DNA of 64,000 nt from Fidelibacterota bacterium (GTDB lineage Bacteria; Fidelibacterota; UBA2242), in NCBI GenBank assembly GCA_016783665.1, contig JADHWC010000001.1, forward strand, positions 10,596 to 74,595, given 5' to 3'. Under the pieces are notes generated by a model, which saw nothing but the letters and a program-made list of their open reading frames with translations, was not told the origin of the DNA and did not search any database. Positions 6,773-19,812 of the stretch are shown piece by piece. A program made the position numbers and the translations under genes. How positions within the stretch are numbered: position 1 is the stretch's first letter; each line of letters opens with the position of its first letter.

Positions 6773-7912
6773 TTACCGAAAAAGACTTAAATACTCATCA
6801 AAGGTATAGATACGGTTGCGTTTACCACCAGTAACTTCACGCAAAATCCCCAGGTTGATAAAATCATCAATCAACCCATTTGCAGTTATTGGCGTCACTC
6901 CCAACACTTCAGCAACTTCAGAACCTGTTACTGAAGGCTTGGTATATAAATAACTCAGTAACTGTTTTGCCCTGGGAACTTTCCTCTCCAGCCGAAGAAT
7001 TGTCTGTCCCTCAAGCCTCTCTTTAAGTGCGAGGACACTCTGCAGGGTCTGAATTCCTGTCTTGGCAGTTTCGGTAACTGCAGCCAGGAAGAATTTAATC
7101 CAATGAATCATTCGATTGGATTCTGTCACAAATCGCAGATTATCATAATACAGACTCCGATGTTTCTCAAAATAGGATGATAAGTAAAGAACCGGTTTAG
7201 CCAGGATTCCCTCGCCGATCAGATAAAGTGGAATTAACAGGCGCCCAATCCTGCCATTTCCATCTAAAAACGGATGGATCGTTTCAAATTGGTAATGAGC
7301 AATAGCGATTCGGATCATATTTGGGACCGCGATATTGTCATTATGTAAAAAGTATTCCAGATCTGTGATTAAATCCGGAACAGATGTATGAACCGGTGGA
7401 ACAAATATAGCATCCGTTGGCGTAGCGCCACCAATCCAGTTCTGGCTTTTACGAAATTCACCCGGATGTTTGTTTTTACCACGAACACCAGACATTAGCA
7501 CTCGGTGAGTATCCCGAATCAATCTGGACGATAACGGCAGTTTCGCCAACCTATCTACAGCATAATTCAGCGCATTGATGTAATTATTAACCTCCTGCCA
7601 ATCATCCCGCTTTGCCGGTTGGATGTCTTTCTCATCCATGATAGCTTCATCTATATCGGTTCGTGTGCCTTCAATACGGCTGGAGCTGGTCGCTTCTTTG
7701 ACCACGTGCATCCGGATAAAGATATTGACATCCGGTACATAGAGCGAAAATGCATTCAATTCCCCTAATTTGAATACCGCCTGCTCCAACAGAGTATCAA
7801 TAGTAGGTTCAGACCATGACCATTCATGGTTTATCCCGGCTGGCTGAAAACTCCGATAGCCAGTCTGCTGCTGGTAAGTTCCTGCATTGAAATCTTTAAT
7901 GTTCATTGTCAC
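6773..7912 (-). CDS. fic: Fic family protein (AMPylase-type) with internal inhibitory helix and C-terminal wHTH
   Basis: Canonical Fic motif HPFLDGNGRIGRLL. Upstream (S/T)xxxE(G/N) inhibitory motif SSRIEG. C-terminal region resembles a winged helix. Confidence 0.85.
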   Translation of the reverse strand: MTMNIKDFNAGTYQQQTGYRSFQPAGINHEWSWSEPTIDTLLEQAVFKLGELNAFSLYVPDVNIFIRMHVVKEATSSSRIEGTRTDIDEAIMDEKDIQPAKRDDWQEVNNYINALNYAVDRLAKLPLSSRLIRDTHRVLMSGVRGKNKHPGEFRKSQNWIGGATPTDAIFVPPVHTSVPDLITDLEYFLHNDNIAVPNMIRIAIAHYQFETIHPFLDGNGRIGRLLIPLYLIGEGILAKPVLYLSSYFEKHRSLYYDNLRFVTESNRMIHWIKFFLAAVTETAKTGIQTLQSVLALKERLEGQTILRLERKVPRAKQLLSYLYTKPSVTGSEVAEVLGVTPITANGLIDDFINLGILREVTGGKRNRIYTFDEYLSLFR

Positions 7913-7937
7913 CTCAGACTATAATGAGATCTATCGC

Positions 7938-8023
7938 TATTATAGTATAGCGACAAATACTATAATAAGCAATGTGTATTTATAGTATGCGTGGCAATAT
8001 TATAGCAGGGTGAATTATTATAG
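7938..8023. promoter_or_regulatory. Array of five TATTATAG-core motifs at ~20 bp periodicity (one inverted), including palindrome CGCTAT-N6-ATAGCG
   Basis: Copies lie at 7938-7945, 7960-7967 (inverted), 7977-7985, 7997-8005 and 8016-8023, in the 201-nt spacer between the hsdM stop and the fic start. Reading on the minus strand, this is upstream of fic. Confidence 0.35.
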
Positions 8024-8113
8024 CCCGTTGCTAAAACAAGTTTATCGACGGAAGAAATTCAGAGATGGGTGACACCTGTGAAAAATAGCGGGTTGGCAGA
8101 GAAATTACTTAGT

Positions 8114-9559
8114 TTACAGTTCCTCCACAATCCCCCGAAACTGCTCTAACGCCGCTTCGAGGTTATCCGCTATCTCAGCCGCCAGAATATCTGGATCGGG
8201 CAGGTTTTCCATATCTTCCAGACTTTCATCTTTCAGCCAGAAGATATCCAGACTGACTTTATCTCGCTGAATCAGTCCTTCATAGGTGAAAGATTTGAAT
8301 CTCTCGGTTTCGGTACGGGCATGACGGTTTTTGGGGTTGTAGCATTTAACGAAGTCATCCAGATCGGATTTGGTCAGTGGATTTGTCTTCAGTGTGAAGT
8401 GTTTATTCGTTCGTAAATCGTAAATCCACAGCTTCTCGGTCCATGCTTTTTCACTGGCGGGTCTACGGTCGAAGAAGATCACATTCGCCTTGACGCCCTG
8501 GGCATAGAAAACACCTGTTGGCAGCCGAAGTAGTGTATGAATATCGTAATCGCTGAGCAGTTTGCGGCGAACCGTTTCACCGGCGCCACCTTCGAATAAC
8601 ACATTATCCGGTACCACAACAGCGGCACGACCATTGATCTTCAGTAATGATTTAATATGCTGGACAAAGTTCAGCTGCTTATTGGATGTAGTAGCCCAGA
8701 AGTCCTGGCGTTCGTAGGTAATTGATTCCCGTATCGCTTTGCCGTCGCCATTCACAATAGTAATACTGCTTTTCTTGCCGAATGGTGGATTGGTAAGGAC
8801 CATATCGTAACGTTCAGTACCGACCGATTCCAATGAATCCTTAACAGCAATAGGGCTTTCATCACCACCGATCCCGTGCAAATACAGATTCATGACACAA
8901 AGACGAGCGACCGAATCGGCAATTTCGATACCATAGAGCGCTTCATGACGTAGGTGTCGTTTCTGGTCTTTATCCAGTTTGTGATGATGAGAAATATAGT
9001 CATGGGCGGAAATTAAAAAGCCACCGGTACCACAAGCCGGGTCCATAATCGTTATTCCCGGCTCAGGATGCATAACCTTAACAATTGCATTGATCAATGA
9101 ACGTGGGGTAAAGTACTGACCGGCGCCACTCTTAACATCCTCAGCGTTTTTCTGTAATAATCCTTCGTAGGTTTCGCTTTTTACATCAACATCTAATCCA
9201 AGCCAGGTTTCCTCATCAATTAACCTGATTAATCGTCTTAGTTTTGCAGGATCTTGTATTTTATTTTGTGATTTGCGGAAGATAACACCGATAATACTTG
9301 GTTCCTTCCCTAGTTTTTCTAATAGGTGTCGGTAGTGGATTTCCAGTTCATCGCCGTCTTTATTCCGCAGGCTTTCCCAGTTGCATTCCGAGGGTACCCT
9401 GGATTTACGATTAAAGGGTGGCTTCGTCTGTTCGTCATCCATTTTCAGGAACATGAGATAAGTTAGTTGCTCGACATAATCACCATAACTGACACCATCA
9501 TCACGGAGCACATTGCAATAATTCCAGAGTTTTGATACTAAGGCTGCTGCATCGGTCAT
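8114..9559 (-). CDS. hsdM: Type I restriction-modification system methyltransferase subunit HsdM (N6-adenine MTase)
   Basis: 481 aa. AdoMet motif I IMDPACGTGGFL. Catalytic motif IV NPPFG (TNPPFGKK). N-terminus typical of HsdM (MTDAAALVSKLWNYCNVLRDDG). Confidence 0.9.
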   Translation of the reverse strand: MTDAAALVSKLWNYCNVLRDDGVSYGDYVEQLTYLMFLKMDDEQTKPPFNRKSRVPSECNWESLRNKDGDELEIHYRHLLEKLGKEPSIIGVIFRKSQNKIQDPAKLRRLIRLIDEETWLGLDVDVKSETYEGLLQKNAEDVKSGAGQYFTPRSLINAIVKVMHPEPGITIMDPACGTGGFLISAHDYISHHHKLDKDQKRHLRHEALYGIEIADSVARLCVMNLYLHGIGGDESPIAVKDSLESVGTERYDMVLTNPPFGKKSSITIVNGDGKAIRESITYERQDFWATTSNKQLNFVQHIKSLLKINGRAAVVVPDNVLFEGGAGETVRRKLLSDYDIHTLLRLPTGVFYAQGVKANVIFFDRRPASEKAWTEKLWIYDLRTNKHFTLKTNPLTKSDLDDFVKCYNPKNRHARTETERFKSFTYEGLIQRDKVSLDIFWLKDESLEDMENLPDPDILAAEIADNLEAALEQFRGIVEEL

Positions 9560-9561
9560 AT

Positions 9562-10368
9562 TTAATGTATTCCTATTTTGGAATTCATCACTGAAAAGAG
9601 ATTCTTATTCAGATAATCAAAGGTCTGTTTTATATCATAATCAATACCCTGACGTATCAAACCAGCAGTATCACTCCGGAAATCCGGATCTGAAATCTTA
9701 TCATGAACATTGTCAATATATTCTTCTTTTTGGATTGTTAATTCATTATGGCTAATAAATGCATCGAAAGCGTGTAATATGTTTTTCACATTGATGCTCT
9801 GATAATTCAGGCTATACCAGAGATCAAAAAGATCACGTCCCTTTTTTCGCTGAAATAATGCCCTCATTTTCGAGCCCAGTAGTTCTTCAATCGAATATGT
9901 AACCAGATTTCCCTGCCCGGTAAACCAGCGGGATTCAACTTTATAAGGCAGTGACTGGTAGCCAAATACTGTAAAATGCTCACGGCAATTGATTTCGATT
10001 TTTAAACGTAGTTGTTCTGTTGGAGGCGTTTCCGATTCAAAGCGATAGATCAGAGTAGTATTCCGCTTTTTTCGCTTACGAATCGGTTCACCGAGGTAAT
10101 GGAGCACTTCCCGAAACCGATCGATGGTCTCACCCACCGGTTCGGCGTTCATCTGAACCAGGTCAATATCTTCAGAATAGCGGGCTGCCGGTGGTAGAAA
10201 AAGCTTGTGTAAAGCAGTGCCGCCGCGAAAAGCTACTTTCTGACAGAGAATAGGGTCATTAAAAATATCAATTACCGCTCGGCTTATGATCAGGTCCTGC
10301 TCGATCATCTCTGGAGATCGCCACGGTGCGATACTGCGCCATGCATCTATAAAAGGCCGGGGAATCAT
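9562..10368 (-). CDS. abiEii: AbiEii/AbiGii-family nucleotidyltransferase toxin (DUF1814, type IV TA / abortive infection)
   Basis: 268 aa. Family hallmark FRGGTALHKLFLP...RYSEDIDLV. The ORF overlaps the upstream abiEi-like gene by 4 nt (ATGA), consistent with translational coupling. Confidence 0.7.
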   Translation of the reverse strand: MIPRPFIDAWRSIAPWRSPEMIEQDLIISRAVIDIFNDPILCQKVAFRGGTALHKLFLPPAARYSEDIDLVQMNAEPVGETIDRFREVLHYLGEPIRKRKKRNTTLIYRFESETPPTEQLRLKIEINCREHFTVFGYQSLPYKVESRWFTGQGNLVTYSIEELLGSKMRALFQRKKGRDLFDLWYSLNYQSINVKNILHAFDAFISHNELTIQKEEYIDNVHDKISDPDFRSDTAGLIRQGIDYDIKQTFDYLNKNLFSVMNSKIGIH

Positions 10369-11174
10369 AAATCCGTCTCAATTTGAGTATTCACGTTGAT
10401 CTTCCATCGGTTTCTGGATTTGCTGGAAGTTCCTTTCTTAGCGGTATGTAATAGATTATGACGTTTGATTTTGCTTTTTACAACTTCATACAATCTGTCT
10501 GCCAAAGACTGAAATTCCAATTCATATTCCATAAGATAACCGAGTCTTTGTATTACGGCAATCGGAATACTGTCGTCAATTACTTCATGGAACTTTGCCG
10601 GGTCTAAGACTTCACACAGTTCCTGGAGCATAGTTGCCACCCGGTTCATTCCACCAATGCGATTGACATAAAGTAACAGATCAATGGCAGTTAATTCCGG
10701 TGACGAGACATTGACATAACCGGTGAGGGTCTTTTTCTGGGCCAGACCAGCCGCAGGTATTTTCGATTTCACCATAAAGTTGATCTTGACTCCAGCTGCA
10801 AGTAATGGGCGCTGAACCGGTCTGACGGTAATTACATAGGATTCCTGGGGCCGCTGATGAGCTGCGCCATGCATTGCCGCCGCGCTTAAAAGCCCGACAT
10901 AATAGGGTTTCTCCAAATGATGCATTAAATCATCAATAAACTGGATGGCTGGAAGCACACCATGAGCGGAATATTCCGGCGGGATTATGATATAAAACCC
11001 TTTGTAAACCGAACGGGTGCGCCCCTTTTTCCGGAGTCGTTGCAATCCAATCTTAATGGCATTCTCTGACACCTTAAAATACGATTTCACCTCTGCTAAT
11101 GTAAAGGTATATCGTCCCTTAGACCGCAATTGGTCTATATATTTATCCAGATAATTATAACTTAAGTGTTCCAT
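10365..11174 (-). CDS. abiEi: AbiEi-family antitoxin / transcriptional regulator (N-terminal wHTH)
   Basis: 269 aa, immediately upstream of and overlapping the AbiEii gene. Basic wHTH-like N-terminus (FTLAEVKSYFKVSENAIKIGLQRLRKKGR). Length and position typical of AbiEi. Confidence 0.55.
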   Translation of the reverse strand: MEHLSYNYLDKYIDQLRSKGRYTFTLAEVKSYFKVSENAIKIGLQRLRKKGRTRSVYKGFYIIIPPEYSAHGVLPAIQFIDDLMHHLEKPYYVGLLSAAAMHGAAHQRPQESYVITVRPVQRPLLAAGVKINFMVKSKIPAAGLAQKKTLTGYVNVSSPELTAIDLLLYVNRIGGMNRVATMLQELCEVLDPAKFHEVIDDSIPIAVIQRLGYLMEYELEFQSLADRLYEVVKSKIKRHNLLHTAKKGTSSKSRNRWKINVNTQIETDL

Positions 11175-11427
11175 TTATCACCATATAACGTTTCGTTTGC
11201 GTAAAGTATCACTTTGTGACTATTATTGCAAATGAAATGTCATGTATCACAGAGAATAACAATTAAATTCACGATAACATACTCCATGTTAACGTGCGTT
11301 ACAAGTGTTAATATAAAGTGTTTTTATGCAATAGTTATCACGGAACGATAATTCCTGCAATAAATTACTCACGGAATCCATAGCCATTTATAACGCCTCG
11401 TTTGCAATACCTATAACATTGTGACCA

Positions 11428-11532
11428 TTAACGCAAACTGGACGGGACGGTTGCTTTAATGTTATATCTCTCGTCACGGAGCACGTTGCAATAGTTCCAG
11501 AGTTTCGATACTAATGTTGCTGCGTCGGTCAT
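11428..11532 (-). pseudogene. Remnant of an hsdM 5' end (first 20 codons) fused to unrelated sequence
   Basis: Nucleotides 11473-11532 are ~90% identical to 9500-9559, the true hsdM start. They would translate MTDAATLVSKLWNYCNVLRD versus MTDAAALVSKLWNYCNVLRD, followed by divergence and a stop after 34 codons. The ATG overlaps the KAP NTPase stop as ATGA. Confidence 0.6.
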
Positions 11533-13772
11533 TTAACATTTTCCTTGTTATTTTTATTTTCATCAGGATTAGTTATAGATTCTTTCTCTTTCAACATTGC
11601 TTTATAAAATGCCGCAAACTGAAAGGCGACTTTTTTATTATCATCAATATCTTGTGCTCCATAAAGCCAAGCCTTTTCAGCCTTGTCGAGTTTGTCTCCA
11701 TATATGGATTTCAGCTGTGTAAATAAAACTTGTGGATCGATTAATTTAATTATTTTATCGAATGTCTCTCTTCGAAAACTTACCTTGCCAGTCGTTCTAT
11801 TATTTAAATCATCAATAGTCGTAAGAAAAATCGATAAAAATATGACTACATTGTAATGATCCTTACTAAACGTTGAATGTAAATAGCGGGTAAGTTCTTC
11901 TTTGTCGCCCCAATTGTACCAGTACCAAATTAGTTCTTCTGCTTCTTTTCCATATTCAATATAAAATATTTTCGAACCAGAGATAGTTATTATTCTTGAT
12001 AACAATAGTGCATTTAACTCTTTTATCTGCTTATCTGACAACAAGGATTTATCCGGTTTACTTTTATCATCATTCGTGAGCTCATAAAAGCACTTAAGAG
12101 AATATGTTACAGGTTCACTTTTTTCTATAATATCTATAATGGTCGAATAAAATGCATCTTCGGTTTTAGCATTTAATAATAAATCGTGAATTAATGATGA
12201 TGCTAAATATTGTGGTGAGCGTAAAAAAGCAGATTCGCTTGAAGTTGGTAAAAGATCACCAATCTCTGACAGTGCTTTTGATAATTTCAATGAATTGTTG
12301 TTTTGCACCTTATCTTTATACGGCATGAGTTTAAAAAGTACTTTATTAACATTCTTTTTATCTACTATGAAACGTAGTTCTTTGACAATATCTTCTACTT
12401 CTAATTTAGGAATACTTGTTATAAAATTCTCTATAGTAGTATCTGATACATCATCTTTAGGAACAGAGTAACTAAAGTATCTCTGAAAATAATCTTTGGA
12501 TGCGATCCGTTTTTCCTTATACCATTCTTCACTCGCTGGATTTGAAATATCCATCTCTGAAAGAATGCTAGGTATTTGCGGAAATAGAAATGTGATTAAT
12601 GATTTGGCAGATGCATTTTCAATCTCATTGTATGATATTAATGCTTCATCAATTGTATTTTGAGCATTCTTCCTTAATTCTTGTGTTGATTCTAAAAATC
12701 CTCGCGTTCCAAGAAATAAGTTCGAATTATTCCTAATAGAATCATATAATTGAGGATAGAATACACGAATTGCTTCAATTAACAATAAATCTACAAGGTT
12801 CACTTCCCCCTTTAACACAGTAGCAGCAAAACGAATCACGTTTGCATATCTTTTACATAAACGGGGGGTAGTAATTCTCACAGAAAGATCATTTATAACA
12901 ATCTGCCAATAGGGCTGTAACATTTGTCGATTAAATGTAACATTTGAATCATATAAAGCATTATTCACTTCTAATTCAAAGAATTCTAATAGAGTAAACC
13001 TTGGAATTTGAGGCGCTTTAATAGGTATTTGTACAATCTTTTCTAAAAAACTATAACCAGCTTTTATATCGTCCTTATTATTACCGTATTTCTCTGTTAG
13101 TGCTGAAGCGACCATTCTATCATCAAATGCAAGAATATATATTAAATTATCGAATCCTGCTGTTAATTTAACTAACTTAAAAACTGCATGTATCTCATCC
13201 TTGTCGAGCCTGTCAATGTCATCCATAAAAATTACTACGCACTTCTTATTATCTCTAAGGATCCCTTCAAACTTCGTCTTTAAAGTGTCTGGATTATTGC
13301 CAGACATCATCCTACCAACCTTAGTAAGTGTTCCTCCAACGGGAATCGATACACCTGGCCCACTTATATCTAAAGGTAAAATGACTTCCGCGTATTTCTC
13401 AAGAATTTCACCAATCTTTTCTTTCCCCCCTAATTTAATATTTAATGTTTCCCTTAATACTGAGAAGAACATCATAATGAGTTGTTTGTCATCTTCAAAT
13501 CTCCAAGGATTGAATTTTATTGGAATAATAAATTCAGTCTCATTCAATGCGTATTCAATTAAATTTAGTATAGATGTTTTACCATCACCCCATGGTCCTA
13601 ATATACTTATGACCATATTACTGGTATCTTTTCTATTAATTATTGTTTGTGCTATCTTCTGTGCAAATGGCCAGCGATTGAATTTATCTTGTTTTGGGGT
13701 TTGAATTGGTAAATCGGATACATATTCAATTGGTTGAGTTATATTATCATCTTCCATAGAGTTAACCTGCAT
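11529..13772 (-). CDS. KAP-family P-loop NTPase
   Basis: 747 aa. Walker A ILGPWGDGKTS. Walker B hhhhDDIDR (VVIFMDDIDRL). Long helical C-terminal region typical of KAP NTPases. Markedly lower GC than the flanking hsdM and hsdR. Confidence 0.8.
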   Translation of the reverse strand: MQVNSMEDDNITQPIEYVSDLPIQTPKQDKFNRWPFAQKIAQTIINRKDTSNMVISILGPWGDGKTSILNLIEYALNETEFIIPIKFNPWRFEDDKQLIMMFFSVLRETLNIKLGGKEKIGEILEKYAEVILPLDISGPGVSIPVGGTLTKVGRMMSGNNPDTLKTKFEGILRDNKKCVVIFMDDIDRLDKDEIHAVFKLVKLTAGFDNLIYILAFDDRMVASALTEKYGNNKDDIKAGYSFLEKIVQIPIKAPQIPRFTLLEFFELEVNNALYDSNVTFNRQMLQPYWQIVINDLSVRITTPRLCKRYANVIRFAATVLKGEVNLVDLLLIEAIRVFYPQLYDSIRNNSNLFLGTRGFLESTQELRKNAQNTIDEALISYNEIENASAKSLITFLFPQIPSILSEMDISNPASEEWYKEKRIASKDYFQRYFSYSVPKDDVSDTTIENFITSIPKLEVEDIVKELRFIVDKKNVNKVLFKLMPYKDKVQNNNSLKLSKALSEIGDLLPTSSESAFLRSPQYLASSLIHDLLLNAKTEDAFYSTIIDIIEKSEPVTYSLKCFYELTNDDKSKPDKSLLSDKQIKELNALLLSRIITISGSKIFYIEYGKEAEELIWYWYNWGDKEELTRYLHSTFSKDHYNVVIFLSIFLTTIDDLNNRTTGKVSFRRETFDKIIKLIDPQVLFTQLKSIYGDKLDKAEKAWLYGAQDIDDNKKVAFQFAAFYKAMLKEKESITNPDENKNNKENVK

Positions 13773-15501
13773 TTAATTTGTTTATATGTTTTTTCCTCTC
13801 CAGCAACTCACTGGCAGGTTCACCTGCCTGCCGCGTCCGTCCGGCGGCTATCTCTCGCTTTAACCATTTGCGCCCAAAGCCGGTCTTTAAATCCTTTTCT
13901 CGTTTAACTGCTGCTTCACGTGTATTGAATTCTTCCCAATGAACAAGTTTAACCGGTGGATAATGTTTAGTCCAATCAGCACCTTTTCCTTGTATATGTT
14001 CTATCCAACGCTTCTCAATATCATTGGTCTGTCCGATATAGTGACTACCATTGGAACATTCGAATACATAAACGAACAAGCGATCAGGCCGCGGCGCAGG
14101 CAGGTCATTTGGATCCTGCGGCACCAACTTCCCCTCAAAGGCCCGCTTCAGGATAGACTGACGCAGGGATTGGGAACGCTTGAGTTCAGCGTAGATGATT
14201 TGTTCCGATTCATCAATTATTGAAAATAGTCTGTCTAATTCTTTAAGTATTACGTTTTGTTCATCAATTGGCAATAACGGTACAGGAATAGATTTTAGAT
14301 CCTTTACTCCTTTCACGTTAGGAATTGCTGAACCAGTGGAATTTGCAAATATTCTATTTTGGAAATACGGTGATCTAAATAATTGGATAAAAAAAGAATC
14401 ATTATATATATTTCTATTTATTCGTACTCTTAATAGAGCTTGATTTATTATTCCTTCTTGAAAATCATTAGGAATTTGAGTTATTCTACCCAAAGACACA
14501 CCAGAACAACTTATTAAAAAGTCACCTGCTCTTACAGCAAATGCTTTCATTTCTTGATATTTCATTTCATCAATGAAATAACGAGTAAAAGAACAATCAT
14601 CGTTTATTGGACAATATTGTTCATATACTTTATAGCCAGATTTTACAAACATTGATTTCTTTAAAGAGCTACCGAATGGTCCTCTTTTAAATGCTCCTTC
14701 ATCATTTGATAAAATATCTTCCCAAGTAGCCCACACCCACCCCTCAGGCAATTCCGGCAGATTGGAAGTATCAATTGGCTTGGGCGGCTTGTACTTCTTG
14801 CCCAGGCGCTGTTTGCGCTCTGCCTGAATCCGTTCCAGGAGTGCGGATGCCGGCTCAATCTGGTTTGCGTTTTCCCGTCTCCATTCTTCCGTGAGTTTGC
14901 CTTCCACAGCGGCCTTGAGAACTGATTGACGGTACTGCTTCAACAGGGCTTTGGCTCTCTGCAGGGCGTCAATACCGGCGTCAAATTTGGTGAAGAGTTC
15001 CTCGATCTTAGCAACGATGCGCTGCTGTTCGGGGAAGGGGGAAAGGGGAATTTCGAAATTGCCGAGTTCCCTTGTACTGATATTAGGTTGTGCAGCACCA
15101 TATGCATTTTTCAGAATGTCTCTTCTAATAATTGCTAAATAATGGTAAATATAGTCTTGAGTCACATATTTTTGATCTAATACTCGTAACCGACCAACAC
15201 GTTGATTGAGTAAGGATACCCTGTCAATTCGATATTTACCATATTTACCAGTTGTTGCACCTGAAAGAGCAATAACAATGTCATTTGGTTTTAATATAAA
15301 TTCTGGATAGGAATCAACATTTGTCTCATCCAAGTACACTGTTTTTTCATCGAAACTTACACACTCATTTTCTATGTTTGAGATTCGAAGCAATGGAATA
15401 CCAGATGATTTATAGTCCTTACTTTTAAAAGCATAACCACCACGAATTTCGCATATTTGATCAAAAGGTATTTGAGTCCAGTTGTTAGGTAATCTACTCA
15501 T
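13762..15501 (-). CDS. hsdS: Type I R-M specificity subunit HsdS with C-terminal YhbQ-like GIY-YIG nuclease domain (fusion)
   Basis: 579 aa. Two target-recognition domains separated by the conserved central helix (LFTKFDAGIDALQRAKALLKQYRQSVLKAAVEGKLT) and a distal conserved helix (LDRLFSIIDESEQIIYAELKRSQSLRQSILKRAFEGKLV). Residues ~474-545 (nt ~13867-14082) read FVYVFECSNGSHYIGQTNDIEKRWIEHIQGKGADWTKHYPPVKLVHWEEFNTREAAVKREKDLK, a GIY-YIG/URI domain of the YhbQ (COG2827) type. Confidence 0.85.
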   Translation of the reverse strand: MSRLPNNWTQIPFDQICEIRGGYAFKSKDYKSSGIPLLRISNIENECVSFDEKTVYLDETNVDSYPEFILKPNDIVIALSGATTGKYGKYRIDRVSLLNQRVGRLRVLDQKYVTQDYIYHYLAIIRRDILKNAYGAAQPNISTRELGNFEIPLSPFPEQQRIVAKIEELFTKFDAGIDALQRAKALLKQYRQSVLKAAVEGKLTEEWRRENANQIEPASALLERIQAERKQRLGKKYKPPKPIDTSNLPELPEGWVWATWEDILSNDEGAFKRGPFGSSLKKSMFVKSGYKVYEQYCPINDDCSFTRYFIDEMKYQEMKAFAVRAGDFLISCSGVSLGRITQIPNDFQEGIINQALLRVRINRNIYNDSFFIQLFRSPYFQNRIFANSTGSAIPNVKGVKDLKSIPVPLLPIDEQNVILKELDRLFSIIDESEQIIYAELKRSQSLRQSILKRAFEGKLVPQDPNDLPAPRPDRLFVYVFECSNGSHYIGQTNDIEKRWIEHIQGKGADWTKHYPPVKLVHWEEFNTREAAVKREKDLKTGFGRKWLKREIAAGRTRQAGEPASELLERKKHINKLNAG

Positions 15502-15520: not shown

Positions 15521-16669
15521 TCAGGCACAATTCCGTATTTCTTCCAGGTAGTTCTCAGCATAGTATTGATCCGGTATTGATTGTGAAACTATATCTTTTA
15601 GTCTGTTTAAGTAACTGGGAGACAAAAGATCATTATGCTGGAGGATACCAACGATGATCCCCGGATGGAGATGCAAATACTCAGCAGTATCATATATCAA
15701 TCTCTGCTGAATATAGCCAGTCTTCAATTCAAAGATGTCTATTATTGCCTTTGATTTTAGTAATTCAGATGCGAACTCGTTGGCTTCCTGTTCTGTCGTG
15801 CCTGCCTGGTTTCTCTCTTCCACGTTATCAATAAAGAAATCCTCCGCGGTATTCAGATGTCGCAGGACATGGGCGATTTCATGAGCAATTGTGAACCAAA
15901 AGTTGTCGTTACGATCATAGCGTTTAGTATATACGATGACAGGGTTTTCGCCGTCGAGAAATGAAGCGCCATCGGTATAGGTTTTTTGCAGATGACTGAG
16001 GACAAAGAATTTGACGCCGCATTGTTCAAGAGCACCGGTAAATGCCGCGATTCCATCATCCCGAACCGTATATGTGTGAATTTGTGAAGCCAGCAGTTTC
16101 AGGGCAGGTTTATCGTATTCCGACGATTCATATATTTTGGCGCTGCGCTGTGCCATTCGATACCAACATAGTGCATAATTGTTGTTAAAACGGCCATATG
16201 CTGAGGATTTACGAAATTGAGGTAAAAGTTTGTCATTGAAGAAATCAAAGGACAAATCCTGTGTATTCCAGAATCGCTGAACCTCTTTTACGAATTGTTC
16301 AAGATTGCTTCGTGCGCAAATCCAGTCCTTTTTAACCATCTCCTGAATCGGCATATACTTATAAATGTTGGCTTTCAGTTCAACCATAGCTTCTTTTTGC
16401 GATTCTTCTTGTAATTGGAGTCTGTACATCGAATCCAGATTCAGCCAGTACTGCGGAGATTGTCCAAAGGTTTTACTAAGCAGACGAGCGGTTTCCGGGG
16501 TAATGGATTGTTTGTTTTTAATAATCATGTTAATAGATTTGATATTCATGCCCAGAATATCAGCCAAATCTTCCTGGCGCCAACCCCGTTCATCTAACTC
16601 TTCCCGGATGAATTCGCCGGGACCAATGTTAATAAAAGGTTGCAGAGTATTGACCATTTTAATCACCAT
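15521..16669 (-). CDS. higA: HigA-like antitoxin: XRE-family HTH fused to ImmA/IrrE (COG2856) zinc metallopeptidase domain
   Basis: 382 aa. N-terminal HTH (EDLADILGMNIKSINMIIKNKQSITPETARLLSKTFG). HEXXH motif FTIAHEIAHVLRH plus downstream EQEANEFASELL, typical of ImmA/IrrE. Overlaps the upstream small toxin-like ORF by 11 nt. Confidence 0.75.
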   Translation of the reverse strand: MVIKMVNTLQPFINIGPGEFIREELDERGWRQEDLADILGMNIKSINMIIKNKQSITPETARLLSKTFGQSPQYWLNLDSMYRLQLQEESQKEAMVELKANIYKYMPIQEMVKKDWICARSNLEQFVKEVQRFWNTQDLSFDFFNDKLLPQFRKSSAYGRFNNNYALCWYRMAQRSAKIYESSEYDKPALKLLASQIHTYTVRDDGIAAFTGALEQCGVKFFVLSHLQKTYTDGASFLDGENPVIVYTKRYDRNDNFWFTIAHEIAHVLRHLNTAEDFFIDNVEERNQAGTTEQEANEFASELLKSKAIIDIFELKTGYIQQRLIYDTAEYLHLHPGIIVGILQHNDLLSPSYLNRLKDIVSQSIPDQYYAENYLEEIRNCA

Positions 16670-16970
16670 AATGCTTGGATATTTCTAATAGCGTTACTTT
16701 TTTGAAGATTTTATCTTTTACTTCCCATTCAACATCAAATTCGAGCCGCCACTGTTTATTAAGTCTGACCGAATAGCGGTTTTTAAATCCTTCGAGACGT
16801 TCAAAGTGCAGGGATTTTGAATTCCAAAGATCGTAAATTGTGTCAGAAGCCTCAAGCGACCTAACGCGCATCAAGAACTTTCTCTTGATTTCTTCTGTTA
16901 GTCTTGGCCTACGACATTTTCTTGATGTGTATAAATTTAATAGGTTTTTGTTCCCAAATTCGATATTCAA
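16659..16970 (-). CDS. higB: HigB/RelE-superfamily toxin-like protein (killer protein)
   Basis: 103 aa. C-terminal pattern LEGFKNRYSVRLNKQWRLEFDVEW...KVTLLEISKHY resembles HigB (…GxxxGxWSxRxNxxWRxxF…DYH). Directly upstream of the HTH-ImmA gene in the toxin-first order typical of higBA. Confidence 0.6.
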   Translation of the reverse strand: MNIEFGNKNLLNLYTSRKCRRPRLTEEIKRKFLMRVRSLEASDTIYDLWNSKSLHFERLEGFKNRYSVRLNKQWRLEFDVEWEVKDKIFKKVTLLEISKHYGD

Positions 16971-17049: not shown

Positions 17050-19812
17050 TTAAGAAGTCAACACCCTGTTTAATTCATCTAAAATAGTGCTGAACTGTTC
17101 TCCAAATACTTGATACGCTTTCATCAAGCCGCCGCGATCATAAAAGGGCACGTTGTCAAAGTCATCTACTTCGATCTCCACGCTGGTGGCAATGTGGTCT
17201 TTGATCATCTTCAGCCATTCCAGCTGTTCCGGGCTGAAGTCGTTGCCTGCTTTACGCTGATTTTCCAGCCAGTTCTCAAAGCGCTGATCGATACTCTGAT
17301 AGAAGGGCGTCAACTGCTCCTCTTTACCCAAACCGTAGCGAATCAATGAAATCAGATCGGTGAGCAGTTTATCCGGTCCCCGCCGCCGTACCCGGTCCTT
17401 ATCCAGCTGCTCAAATGCAAACCAGACCCGGTCGGTATTCAAGTTGTAGGGCGGGTTCTCCATCCGTTTTGCCAGTTCTTTGATCATCTCGTAAGTCAGA
17501 TGACGTTTATCATAAGGTTGATTGTAGATGATCTGAAGCGCCGTGATCTCATCCTGATTGGCTTGCATGAATTCCCGGAAGGATTTGATGAGGACATTAG
17601 CCTTCTTTTTAGCATCACTGTCATAGCCGGCGGATACAACATTATCTATACTGACAGTATCAATGGTTTGTTCATTGCGCTGCTTTAGTTCAATGAGTTT
17701 ATTCCTGAACTTCGGATCGTCAAATACTTCGCAGGCATCCCTGGTAAGTTCGTCCGCAGCCTGTTTTATCTGTTCCCCGGAAGGTGAATCTGTCTGAAAT
17801 AGCGTTTTTGCTTTTTCTGTTTGAATATCAGGATCCACGGCATCCAGTAATTGATTGCTTATAGCGGTTAATAATTTACCGCCGGAAACGTCTTCCAATT
17901 CCTTTTGCTGCTCTTTATCTAATTGCAGGTTCAGGCGTGACAGGCGTCCGGCAAGCGATTTAATTGTATCTTCATCCCGTGCGCCAAAGGCGATCTGCTG
18001 GATCAGTTTATTAAATGGAACTGTGCGTTTGCGCTCCAGCGGTTTGGAATCAATTTTCACCGATTCCGTAACACCAACTGCATCTACTACAATAAAATGG
18101 GTTTTATCACGAGTATCCGGAGTTACTGCCACAAGGTCGGTACTGGAAATGACTCTTGTACCGCGCCCGATCATCTGTTCAAAGTACAGCCTGGATTTGA
18201 TATTCCGCATGAATAGCAGACATTCCAGGGGTTTAATATCCGTTCCGGTGGAGATCATATCCACAGTTACGGCAATACGAGGATTATAGGAGTTCCGGAA
18301 ACTGGCAATCAGGTTTTCCGGCGTGTCGCCAGTGGTCTTGTAAGTGATCTTCTTGCAGAAGTCATTACCTTTATCGAATTCCTGCCGGGTTATCTGAACG
18401 ATATTCTCGGCGTGAGCATCATCTTTAGCAAAGATGAGGGTCTTGGGAACTTCCGTTCTGCCGGGGAATATCTCAGTGTACAGTTTATCACGGAAAGTGC
18501 GGATGACCGTACGTATCTGATCGACAGAGACTACTTCCCGGTCTAATTGCTTTTCGGTATAGACAATGTCCTCATCCAGTTGTTCCCAGCGCTTTTCCCG
18601 TGTGTACCGGTCTTGCTTCGCAACCCAGAAACCGGCGTCGATTTTACTGCCCTGCTCTGTAATCTGAGTTTGAATACGATATACTTCAAAACCGACATTC
18701 ACCCGGTCGGCAACCGCCCGCTCATGGTTATATTCCATGACCAGGTTTTTATTGAAGAATCCAAAAGTCTGCTTGGAGGGTGTAGCCGTCAATCCAATGA
18801 TAAAAGCATCAAAATATTCCAGCACCTGTCGCCATTGGTTATAAATCGACCGGTGACATTCATCAGTGATGATGAAATCAAAGGTTTCTATCGGGATTTG
18901 CGGATTGTAAACGACTTCTTTTGGTGGAATAGTTTCGTCAGTAACATCGTACAGGGAAAGTTCTTCCAAGTCGTCTTCAATGGGTTCGCCTCTGAGCATA
19001 CTGTAAAGGCGCTGAATTGTTGTAATACAGACTTTATTGACCGGATCAATTACGTTAGATGAAAGCAACTGAACATTATATAATTCAGTGAATTTCCGTC
19101 CGTCGTCAGGAGTGATATATTGAGCAAACTCACCGCGAGTCTGGCGTCCCAGAGTTTTACGATCCACCAGAAAAAGGATGCGTTTCGCCCTGGCAAATTT
19201 GATCAGGCGATAGACAAACGATACCGCTGTAAAGGTCTTACCACTGCCGGTAGCCATCTGGATTAGTGCCCGTGGACGCGCATTCCGGAAAGAGTGGTCA
19301 AGGTTAGCTATCGCTTCCACCTGGCATTGACGGAGTCTGTTGGTCAGTAGCGGTGGTAATTGCCGTAAGCGCTTCCTGAGTGTGACAGACTCATTCAGAT
19401 ACTCCTGAAGCGTTTCCGGTCGGTGAAAATTGAATACGCGCCGGGATCGTGGACTGGGATCACGTTCATCGGTAAAATATGTCTCAATACCCGTACTTTC
19501 ATAAGTGAATGGTAACGGTGATTGAACATGTGGTATTTTGTCCGGGAAGTTGTGACCGTATTTTATCGATTGCTCATGAACGCCACTGAGTGTGGTGCCT
19601 TCCGGCTTGGCTTCAACAACACCGGCACCTTGACGGTCTATGAATAATACATAATCAGCAGGACCGGCATTAGTCGGGAACTCCCGAACGGCAACGCCTA
19701 ACCCGACACCGAGATTAATAGCTTTAACGTCCTGTATAATCCATCCTGATTGAGTTAACAGTTGATCGATATGTTGGCGCGCCAGTTCTTCAGGCGTCAT
19801 TTTTGGTTGCAC
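17050..19812 (-). CDS. hsdR: Type I restriction enzyme R subunit HsdR (SF2 helicase/translocase + nuclease)
   Basis: 920 aa. Walker A MATGSGKTFTAV. DEAH box ITDECHRS. HsdR-type N-terminal domain and C-terminal helical domain. Confidence 0.9.
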   Translation of the reverse strand: MQPKMTPEELARQHIDQLLTQSGWIIQDVKAINLGVGLGVAVREFPTNAGPADYVLFIDRQGAGVVEAKPEGTTLSGVHEQSIKYGHNFPDKIPHVQSPLPFTYESTGIETYFTDERDPSPRSRRVFNFHRPETLQEYLNESVTLRKRLRQLPPLLTNRLRQCQVEAIANLDHSFRNARPRALIQMATGSGKTFTAVSFVYRLIKFARAKRILFLVDRKTLGRQTRGEFAQYITPDDGRKFTELYNVQLLSSNVIDPVNKVCITTIQRLYSMLRGEPIEDDLEELSLYDVTDETIPPKEVVYNPQIPIETFDFIITDECHRSIYNQWRQVLEYFDAFIIGLTATPSKQTFGFFNKNLVMEYNHERAVADRVNVGFEVYRIQTQITEQGSKIDAGFWVAKQDRYTREKRWEQLDEDIVYTEKQLDREVVSVDQIRTVIRTFRDKLYTEIFPGRTEVPKTLIFAKDDAHAENIVQITRQEFDKGNDFCKKITYKTTGDTPENLIASFRNSYNPRIAVTVDMISTGTDIKPLECLLFMRNIKSRLYFEQMIGRGTRVISSTDLVAVTPDTRDKTHFIVVDAVGVTESVKIDSKPLERKRTVPFNKLIQQIAFGARDEDTIKSLAGRLSRLNLQLDKEQQKELEDVSGGKLLTAISNQLLDAVDPDIQTEKAKTLFQTDSPSGEQIKQAADELTRDACEVFDDPKFRNKLIELKQRNEQTIDTVSIDNVVSAGYDSDAKKKANVLIKSFREFMQANQDEITALQIIYNQPYDKRHLTYEMIKELAKRMENPPYNLNTDRVWFAFEQLDKDRVRRRGPDKLLTDLISLIRYGLGKEEQLTPFYQSIDQRFENWLENQRKAGNDFSPEQLEWLKMIKDHIATSVEIEVDDFDNVPFYDRGGLMKAYQVFGEQFSTILDELNRVLTS

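Follow-up and report, generated by a model that had tools for sequence, protein, structure and literature searches.

Why does the start of a methyltransferase gene occur a second time among the defence genes of its own operon? This question is raised by a Type I restriction-modification (RM) operon in a stretch of 64,000 nucleotides (nt) from a Fidelibacterota bacterium (assembly GCA_016783665.1, contig JADHWC010000001.1, positions 10,596 to 74,595), which is referred to here as the window. The 5' end of the methyltransferase gene hsdM recurs there as the beginning of a 105-nt open reading frame (ORF; 11428–11532, minus strand) situated between a gene for a KAP-family P-loop NTPase and the gene pair abiEi-abiEii, which directly precedes the intact hsdM. 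A preliminary description, made from the letters of the DNA alone, had taken this copy for the mark of a recombination event by which the abiE genes were gained. Our analysis shows that the ORF is a non-functional hsdM 5' stub and a recombination scar at the junction of embedded defence cassettes. As for its origin, we give a probability of about 0.7 to the reading that this dead stub results from one illegitimate join combined with homologous exchange between different hsd loci.

The stub and its allelic origin

Repeat finding and direct alignment delimited two 62-nt copies of a direct repeat, 9498–9559 and 11471–11532, both on the minus strand and in the same direction, with 55 of 62 positions identical (89%). 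The former is the 5' end of the functional hsdM, and the latter, the stub proper, corresponds to hsdM codons 1–21. The ATG of the stub at 11532 overlaps the stop codon of the KAP gene as ATGA. Its translation, MTDAATLVSKLWNYCNVLRDE..., has 20 of 21 residues in common with HsdM (MTDAAALVSKLWNYCNVLRDD). After nt 62 (codon 21) the homology is lost abruptly, and the 13 codons that complete the ORF are unrelated to HsdM in the alignment and end in a stop within an operator-like palindrome (palindrome A, described below). With 34 codons compared with 481 in hsdM, the ORF does not contain the functional domains of HsdM. These results agree with the preliminary description, which had noted ~60 nt of the hsdM start recurring at ~90% identity, near-identical residues before a stop after 34 codons, and the ATGA overlap with the KAP stop. 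It had also held the similarity to exceed chance for AT-rich DNA. In line with this, a search of the whole window with the stub (blastn-short) gave E=3×10−15 for 9501–9559 and E=0.63 for the runner-up match, and the core motif TGGAAYTAYTGYAAY was found at two sites only, namely the two repeat copies.

The stub region was 100% identical in contigs of at least five independent assemblies and is thus not an assembly artefact; the structure was also found in diverged relatives. The identical 34-amino acid (aa) product was called in five other contigs, and the 13-codon tail was not conserved in the stubs of other loci. The ORF displays what characterizes a gene-fragment scar, namely same-direction homology to a nearby gene end, an abrupt junction and alternative arrangements in relatives.

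The stub differs from the window's own hsdM at seven positions (nt 9, 16, 18, 27, 39, 48 and 60), six of which are third codon positions [binomial P(≥6/7) about 0.007 under random placement]. This bias indicates that the copies diverged as working coding sequence in different genomes and not by decay after a local duplication. We compared the stub with hsd loci from an HsdM scan (80 loci, one genome per species, many bacterial and archaeal phyla) and with ~100 other loci. It was identical at 60 of 62 positions to the hsdM 5' end of L001, a locus whose HsdM is 95% identical to that of the window, compared with 55/62 to the window's own hsdM. At the sequence level, these comparisons show that the stub derives from a different hsdM allele, like that of L001, and they uphold the earlier proposal of a related but distinct donor locus rather than a fresh target-site duplication. 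A further trace of exchange was found in L082 to L085, where the stub (e.g. L082 3552–3656) differs from the window stub only at nt 39, 45, 48 and 51. The four changes are all synonymous, clustered and in states known from other hsdM alleles, and the surrounding 300 nt are identical; the patch resembles a short tract of gene conversion by some hsdM allele.

Linkage of the stub and the leader between KAP and abiEi

The alternative closest to the preliminary description is that abiEi-abiEii was gained in a single step by an ancestral KAP-hsdM operon, with the hsdM start as homology arm and duplication of the hsdM 5' end as the result. Variants of this model are Campbell-type integration of a circle carrying an hsdM 5' end and abiE, or a double crossover with a stub-bearing donor. 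It is attractive since the direct repeats flank exactly the leader and abiE, the KAP stop and the stub start overlap, and the divergence of the copies fits a foreign donor allele. Moreover, L001 compared with the window resembles such an insertion, with a further cassette at the abiEii-hsdM junction. However, the arrangement in relatives speaks against it. Window-type contigs, L001/L095, L082 to L085 and L179 have the identical junction CGTGACGA/GAGATATAAC, with KAP upstream every time, and in L179 a KAP gene (89% identical) is followed by the stub and the first palindrome and then by a DUF6577 gene instead of abiEi. In L175 (KAP 89% identical in aa and 92% in nt) the order is hsdS, KAP, a 160-aa partner ORF, 'ATGAC' plus palindrome C, abiEi and abiEii, and no stub was found between KAP and abiE. 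The closest abiEi relatives (80–82%, L096 to L098) stand directly after the hsdS stop and have only the last ~75 nt of the window leader in common with it.

The KAP side of the joint also argues against a single step. In L175 and L176, the 3' ends of KAP show no homology to the last ~50 nt of the window's KAP gene (11533–11582), which makes the joint of KAP and stub a recombinant one as well. Relatives carry a small ORF after KAP (L175 6481–6963, L176 6447–6953, L180 9242–9526, L182 9259–9843), which in L175 and L176 overlaps the stop of KAP and encodes 160–174 aa, the N-terminus being hydrophobic. By comparison with these genes, the window KAP has lost the partner ORF and had its 3' end replaced. 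The pre-insertion state that had been expected among relatives, KAP directly adjacent to hsdM, was absent in all six KAP homologue contexts examined, and relatives have a small partner ORF in its place. Adjacency of abiE and hsdM is widespread in this hsdM clade. Nor is the proposed homology arm supported: the join at nt 62 is non-homologous, and a crossover in the arm would by itself leave no truncated copy. Moreover, the longest perfect run between the window's two copies is 11 nt, a poor substrate for homologous crossover today.

The leader between KAP and abiEi comprises 296 nt (11175–11470) and is a mosaic of three segments that differ in their distribution among relatives. The preliminary description was right to place a leader and abiEi-abiEii between the stub and hsdM, which the gene calls confirmed (Pfam, PADLOC), but the length of ~250 nt given there was slightly too short. 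The proximal segment (11175–11245, minus strand), with 'ATGAC', operator-like palindrome C (11195–11235) and the abiEi 5' untranslated region (UTR), is the only one common to L096 to L098 and L175. This distribution sets the real 5' limit of the abiE cassette at position 11245, which is separated from the stub by 225 nt. The middle segment (11246–11384, minus strand), with an operator-like palindrome at ~11324–11362 (by eye), was found only in window-type and L001/L082-type contigs. The distal segment (11385–11470, minus strand) contains the stub tail, palindrome A (11398–11438) and a vestigial 'CGTTATAAATG' start region and is 92% identical in L179. It parallels palindrome C and the abiEi start region and has the look of what is left of another abiEi-like cassette, namely its operator, 5'UTR and start.

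The three related palindromes of ~37 bp (11195–11235, ~11324–11362 and 11398–11438) have the half-site TTTGCnnTAATnGTCAC. Only the proximal one, palindrome C, is common to stub-less abiE loci; it lies just upstream of abiEi, is kept in L096 to L098 and L175, and is a candidate AbiEi operator. The two distal palindromes might be leftover operators that are perhaps still bound by AbiEi. A promoter-like site (11250–11222) that overlaps palindrome C is a consensus match only, and promoter-like matches in 9300–11800 were not above shuffle expectation. No known RNA families or terminators were found in the same interval. The stop of the stub ORF lies 254 nt ahead of abiEi. We regard the KAP-abiEi interval as a stack of at least three junction leftovers, the debris of several events. 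Across KAP-abiE, identity between the window and L001 alternates from about 60% to 100%, which implies repeated recombination.

From the arrangements in L179 and L175, the mosaic leader and the lack of KAP-hsdM adjacency, we conclude that the stub belongs to the KAP-linked block and not to abiE. Single-step gain of abiE is thus an unlikely account of the stub, and the earlier view of abiE as the inserted module is not supported; the view of the stub as a footprint of cassette shuffling in hsd loci is, with comparable stubs in relatives.

Two further candidates were rejected. The Logan contigs L090, L092 and L093, from different runs, all begin at window position 9581, 22 nt upstream of the hsdM ATG. 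We considered these contig starts as a sign of cassette polymorphism, but a single-nucleotide difference between the window and L001 at this site explains the breaks equally well. If the repeat reached beyond the ATG in the upstream direction, the stub block would be a piece of an abiEii-hsdM junction; the local alignment for this gave a score of 27 (p about 0.007–0.017 compared with random windows). Such an extension was not accepted because unrelated A-rich gene tails (hsdS 3' ends) score equally (24–29).

Stubs in other loci and the origin of the joint

Each of the 80 loci was searched for stubs with its own hsdM 5' end. The common gene order in this set is hsdR-hsdS-hsdM with cassettes between hsdS and hsdM, and >300 nt of other genes separate these two in 35 of the 64 loci in which both are visible. 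Stubs of the hsdM 5' end were present in 8 of 80 loci, representing several phyla. L001 carries two (62 and 75 nt), followed by abiE and by a cassette of SNF2 and a 513-aa protein, respectively. Single stubs occur in L026 (~66 nt, then a Fic gene), L058 (~69–72 nt, then RhuM), L066 (about 60–78 nt, then a small Fic gene) and L073 (~133 nt, then HipA_2 and DUF3037, the latter unrelated to DUF3800). In L002 and L004, stubs of 11–15 nt are fused in frame to a RhuM-Fic gene, and L045 has a whole second gene, hsdM-Mrr. In addition, a stub of 69 nt separates abiEii from a RhuM-Fic gene in L108, a locus from a metagenome scan, and is missing in L109, a relative of this locus. All stubs are in direct orientation, and no reverse-strand match was obtained at E<0.01.

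The presence of stubs was associated with the size of the hsdS-hsdM gap. They were found in 7 of 12 loci with gaps of ≥2164 nt, in 0 of 23 with 300–2164 nt and in 0 of 29 with ≤300 nt (hypergeometric p about 10−4, with a cut-off picked after seeing the data). Wherever both neighbours are visible, the stub sits between two cassettes (L066 begins at the contig end), and in L001 the two stubs flank successive cassettes. Stubs therefore mark cassette-to-cassette joints in stacked arrays. Stacked cassettes without any stub occur as well (L183, L175).

Two of the stubs preserve both sides of a joint. The stubs of L058 and L066 continue in frame into the final 33–42 codons of an hsdS gene; the hsdS remnant of L058 is 88% identical to the C-terminus of the locus's own HsdS (E=1.7×10−31), and its stop overlaps the start of the next cassette. 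An hsdM 5' end joined to an hsdS 3' end is the signature of a head-to-tail join of two hsdS...hsdM segments. No hsdS 3' remnant was found after the window stub.

We also considered that the stub might be part of the downstream cassette and move with it, and rejected this. The second stub of L001 stays with abiEii, and the SNF2 cassette, of which L183 has a 70% homologue, follows a DUF3800 gene there without a stub; likewise, the window stub keeps its KAP gene while the downstream gene varies. A cassette of SNF2 and a ~500-aa protein (68% homologue) was also seen outside hsd operons, in L184 to L187, between two arginine-repressor (ArgR) genes next to genes of arginine biosynthesis; the ORF that comes after it there (63 aa) has no relation to HsdM.

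The shortest stubs are fused to the gene that follows. RhuM-Fic proteins beginning with MTDAA or MTDTA, the first residues of HsdM, are encoded in L002 (1221–2237), L004 (2048–3055), L096 (2087–2761) and L175 (from 8660). These starts represent the in-frame fusion of an 11–15-nt hsdM stub, and the homologue in L108 has its own start in addition to the 69-nt stub. Upstream of the stub in L026 (5116–8568) we observed genes for a PRTase-CE/wHTH protein, a reverse transcriptase (RVT_1) and a PD-(D/E)XK nuclease, which by their domains would be a cassette of the retron-like or DRT-like kind embedded in a Type I RM operon.

In L045, two hsdM genes stand in tandem (7913–9937 and 9992–11470), the upstream one (674 aa) with a fused Mrr_cat nuclease domain. 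Over its first 260 nt this upstream gene matches the adjoining hsdM at 95% identity, compared with 64% aa identity of its hsdM-homologous part to the window HsdM used as query. This pattern indicates gene conversion, or homogenisation, of the 5' end. Together with the patch in the L082 stub, it argues that hsdM 5' ends do recombine.

The breakpoints on the hsdM side are not identical but cluster. Six independent joints break within hsdM codons 20–26 (nt 62, ~66, 69, ~72, 75 and ~75–78), and other stubs break outside this range, at 11–15 nt and at ~133 nt. Since stubs of 11–15 nt were detectable, detection bias can only be part of the scarcity of very short stubs. On the partner side, the breakpoints are heterogeneous and fall in an hsdS 3' remnant, in a leader or inside a cassette ORF. 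The clustering may be due to the end of a low-degeneracy patch that is the sole usable homology between diverged hsdM genes. It is also possible that longer, potentially interfering HsdM N-terminal fragments are selected against, or that longer repeats are unstable.

The homology and sharp junction of the stub, its derivation from another allele and its association with KAP are observations, as are the mosaic leader and the occurrence of further stubs elsewhere. A single illegitimate join, combined with homologous exchange among different hsd loci, most likely accounts for them as follows. DNA ending just inside the hsdM of a different, L001-like allele would have been linked by a non-homologous join to the upstream edge of another cassette-hsdM unit, and ordinary homologous recombination in the conserved hsdM, hsdS or hsdR would have completed the exchange. 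A segment ending inside hsdM and joined to the front of another cassette-hsdM unit fits with the observation that stubs stay with the upstream gene. One possible route is homology-facilitated illegitimate recombination. Another is the head-to-tail joining or tandem duplication of units running from the hsdS 3' end through a cassette to the hsdM 5' end, followed by cassette swapping. Such head-to-tail joins might originate from tandem duplication, from Campbell-type integration of a second locus and subsequent deletion, or from direct illegitimate joining of incoming and resident loci. The present abiE cassette, from 'ATGAC' and palindrome C onward, would then have been placed downstream of, or exchanged into, a pre-existing KAP-stub structure.

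Several points weigh against this reading. Random illegitimate joins do not explain the clustering at codons 20–26. No locus was found in the state immediately before the join, so we infer the direction and order of events, as well as the enzymology. The head-to-tail model is demonstrated only in other loci, the window stub being without an hsdS 3' remnant. Finally, the comparison sequences are all metagenome assemblies and comprise the 80 genome loci and about 100 others only.

The clustering would be accounted for by a broader idea, which we consider unlikely. Here the hsdM 5' patch (codons ~10–25, ...LWNYCNxLRDD...) and the conserved hsdS 3' tail would be universal homology handles by which recombinase-free mobile cassettes are swapped and stacked between the Type I RM operons of different phyla. 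The short stubs, some of them hsdM::hsdS mini-ORFs, would be selected minimal handles that also relay translational coupling from cassette to cassette.

It is improbable, to a greater degree than single-step gain of abiE, that the window stub is a selected small ORF, an adaptor for translational coupling or a leader peptide that would hand ribosomes on from the KAP stop to the cassette downstream or tune the expression of this cassette. The overlap with KAP would be expected of such an adaptor, as would the identity of the 34-aa product in the window, L001 and L082 to L085, the differences in L082 being all synonymous. Elsewhere the next gene starts at the end of the stub ORF or no more than 15 nt from it (L058, L073, L108 and the second stub of L001), or the two are fused in frame (L002, L004, L096, L175). 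However, the window stub ends far from abiEi, at the distance given above, and abiEi is preceded by a promoter-like and operator-like region of its own. The adjoining non-coding leader (98–100%) is as well conserved as the stub ORF, whose conservation is thus uninformative with regard to selection on the peptide. Furthermore, the tails of different stubs are unrelated, and the stub-less arrays of L183 and L175 show that stacking occurs without such an adaptor. A functional role of the window stub ORF is thus unlikely, but judging from the gene arrangement, occasional co-option of stubs for translational coupling in other loci is plausible.

Less probable still is that the hsdM 5' patch serves as a dedicated recombination site for a site-specific enzyme acting in trans, the stub being an attL-like half site. 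The clustering of six independent hsdM-side breakpoints, the invariably direct orientation and the recurrence in several phyla are what such a site would produce. However, the Pfam scans, which covered a set of cassette genes and of immediately flanking ORFs (part of the ORFs of the 64-kb window), gave no match to a recombinase, transposase or integrase family, and the search of the window for tRNAs was negative. As single-stranded DNA, the 62-nt repeat forms no hairpin, is not attC-like and folds no better than shuffles (z=+0.95 and +1.37). The breakpoints vary from 11 to ~133 nt on the hsdM side and are heterogeneous on the partner side, and the stub stays with its upstream gene and not with the supposedly mobile cassette. 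Chance similarity or an assembly artefact, for which the AT-richness of the region is the only argument, is already refuted by the search of the window described above and by the same structure in independent assemblies from different samples and in diverged relatives.

The host operon, related systems and implications

The window operon runs hsdR-hsdS-hsdM on the minus strand, with several non-hsd genes interleaved. The hsdR gene (17050–19812; Pfam, PADLOC) is of the EcoEI_R_C type. Between it and hsdS, a HigB-like toxin ORF (Pfam, 8.9×10−9) overlaps the start of a gene with HTH_3 and Peptidase_M78 domains, which is PD-Lambda-2_B-like (together 15521–16970). No hsdS 5' stub was detectable at the junction of these genes with hsdS (15521–16970 region). 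The hsdS gene (13762–15501) has a GIY-YIG domain inserted in its C-terminal tail (HsdS aa ~476–542), in frame between the ...LRQSIL..AF.G.L motif region and the usual ...PASELLER... tail; an hsdS-GIY-YIG fusion of the same kind was called in L183. It is followed by the gene for the PifA-like KAP NTPase (11529–13772; Pfam, PADLOC) and, after stub and leader, by abiEi (10365–11174, 269 aa) and abiEii (9562–10368, 268 aa; both Pfam, PADLOC). The latter two overlap by 4 nt (10365–10368), and the abiEii stop lies 2 nt ahead of the hsdM ATG. Pfam matches to AbiEi_1 (2×10−30), AbiEi_4 (4×10−5) and AbiEii (1.3×10−32) and the overlap of the genes identify the pair as an AbiE module. The hsdM gene (8114–9559) encodes a Type I methyltransferase of 481 aa (HsdM_N; N6_Mtase, 3.6×10−68; MTase_I, 4×10−197), with a SoFic-like Fic gene downstream (6773–7912). 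PADLOC matched the embedded and adjoining genes as PifA-like (2.8×10−78), AbiEi (2.5×10−95), AbiEii (4×10−103), SoFic (1×10−113) and PD-Lambda-2_B-like (9.5×10−45), and by these assignments the interleaved genes belong to defence or toxin-antitoxin families. All of these genes are on the minus strand, and ordinary chromosomal genes flank the locus.

Homology-facilitated illegitimate recombination, said to have been described by de Vries and Wackernagel in 2002, resembles the present case in that one side is homologous (the hsd genes) and the other is a sharp non-homologous joint. Join points of tandem duplications are known from the bacterial duplication literature, and the hsdM 5'-hsdS 3' chimeras of L058 and L066 are the expected head-to-tail product. 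Unlike our data, neither process predicts clustering at codons 20–26, and the mechanism is deduced here from products only.

Integrative elements that insert into gene ends, e.g. of tRNA genes, leave partial target duplications as attL and attR. The window likewise has a direct repeat of the target gene end, with the gene kept intact by a replacement copy and a dead fragment at the opposite end. In contrast to such elements, no integrase was found, the breakpoints are imprecise, there is no tRNA and the fragment is linked to its upstream neighbour. Integron cassette arrays are built by IntI at attC sites with promoter-proximal stacking. They are similar in that same-orientation, mostly promoter-less cassettes are stacked by a conserved site, as the serial stubs of L001 illustrate. 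They differ in that there is no integrase among the genes scanned here and no attC-like fold, the junctions are heterogeneous and the 'site' is no more than the coding sequence at the start of hsdM. Phase-variable Type I hsdS shufflons, or epigenetic invertons, switch specificity through inverted repeats in hsdS and an invertase (PMC7672463). They too have repeated hsd fragments in a Type I locus that result from or drive recombination, but the window repeats are direct, lie in hsdM, come without a recombinase that we could find and, with a perfect run of 11 nt, are too diverged to switch.

Many anti-phage systems lie embedded in Type I RM, BREX and similar operons, and their position is now a means of discovering new ones. 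PrrC and the Campylobacter rlo genes are among the genes embedded in Type I RM operons. 'Guilt by embedding' has been applied to defence genes in Type I RM operons, with 96.7% of embedded genes in the same orientation (Payne et al. 2024, bioRxiv 10.1101/2024.01.29.577857), and TgvAB of the Vibrio cholerae island VPI-2 is another example of an RM-embedded defence system (PMC11411939). The window conforms to this picture, with its HigB-like/M78, KAP/PifA-like, AbiE and SoFic cassettes interleaved on the same strand with hsdR, hsdS and hsdM. As far as they could be searched, these papers tell which genes embed and not how, and the Payne preprint does not contain the terms 'remnant', 'recombination', 'truncat' and 'hotspot'. 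Stubs of the kind found in the window differ from such content in being a footprint of the embedding process itself. In the literature searched, a limited collection, we found no prior description of hsdM remnants at embedded cassettes, and how embedding happens was not described there.

The window stub, the second stub of L001, the chimeras of L058 and L066 and the in-frame hsdM::RhuM-Fic fusions are physical records of such junctions. Together they point to growth of the arrays by the joining of segments from different hsd loci beside the hsdM start, and the cassettes examined yielded no recombinase. In the window, little follows from this in practice, as the fragment is dead and the repeats are too diverged for frequent loss of abiE. 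Recombination depends on minimal lengths of homology, and given the run of 11 identical nt, loss of abiE between the repeats should be rare. If the clustering of breakpoints holds in a large survey, it would provide a testable rule of stacking, and hsdM 5' stubs would be a signature that delimits cassettes. The stub is an object of an ordinary kind; its recurrence, the hsdM::hsdS chimeras and the clustering of breakpoints make it a useful lead on how defence arrays are assembled in Type I loci, and the pattern is possibly general.

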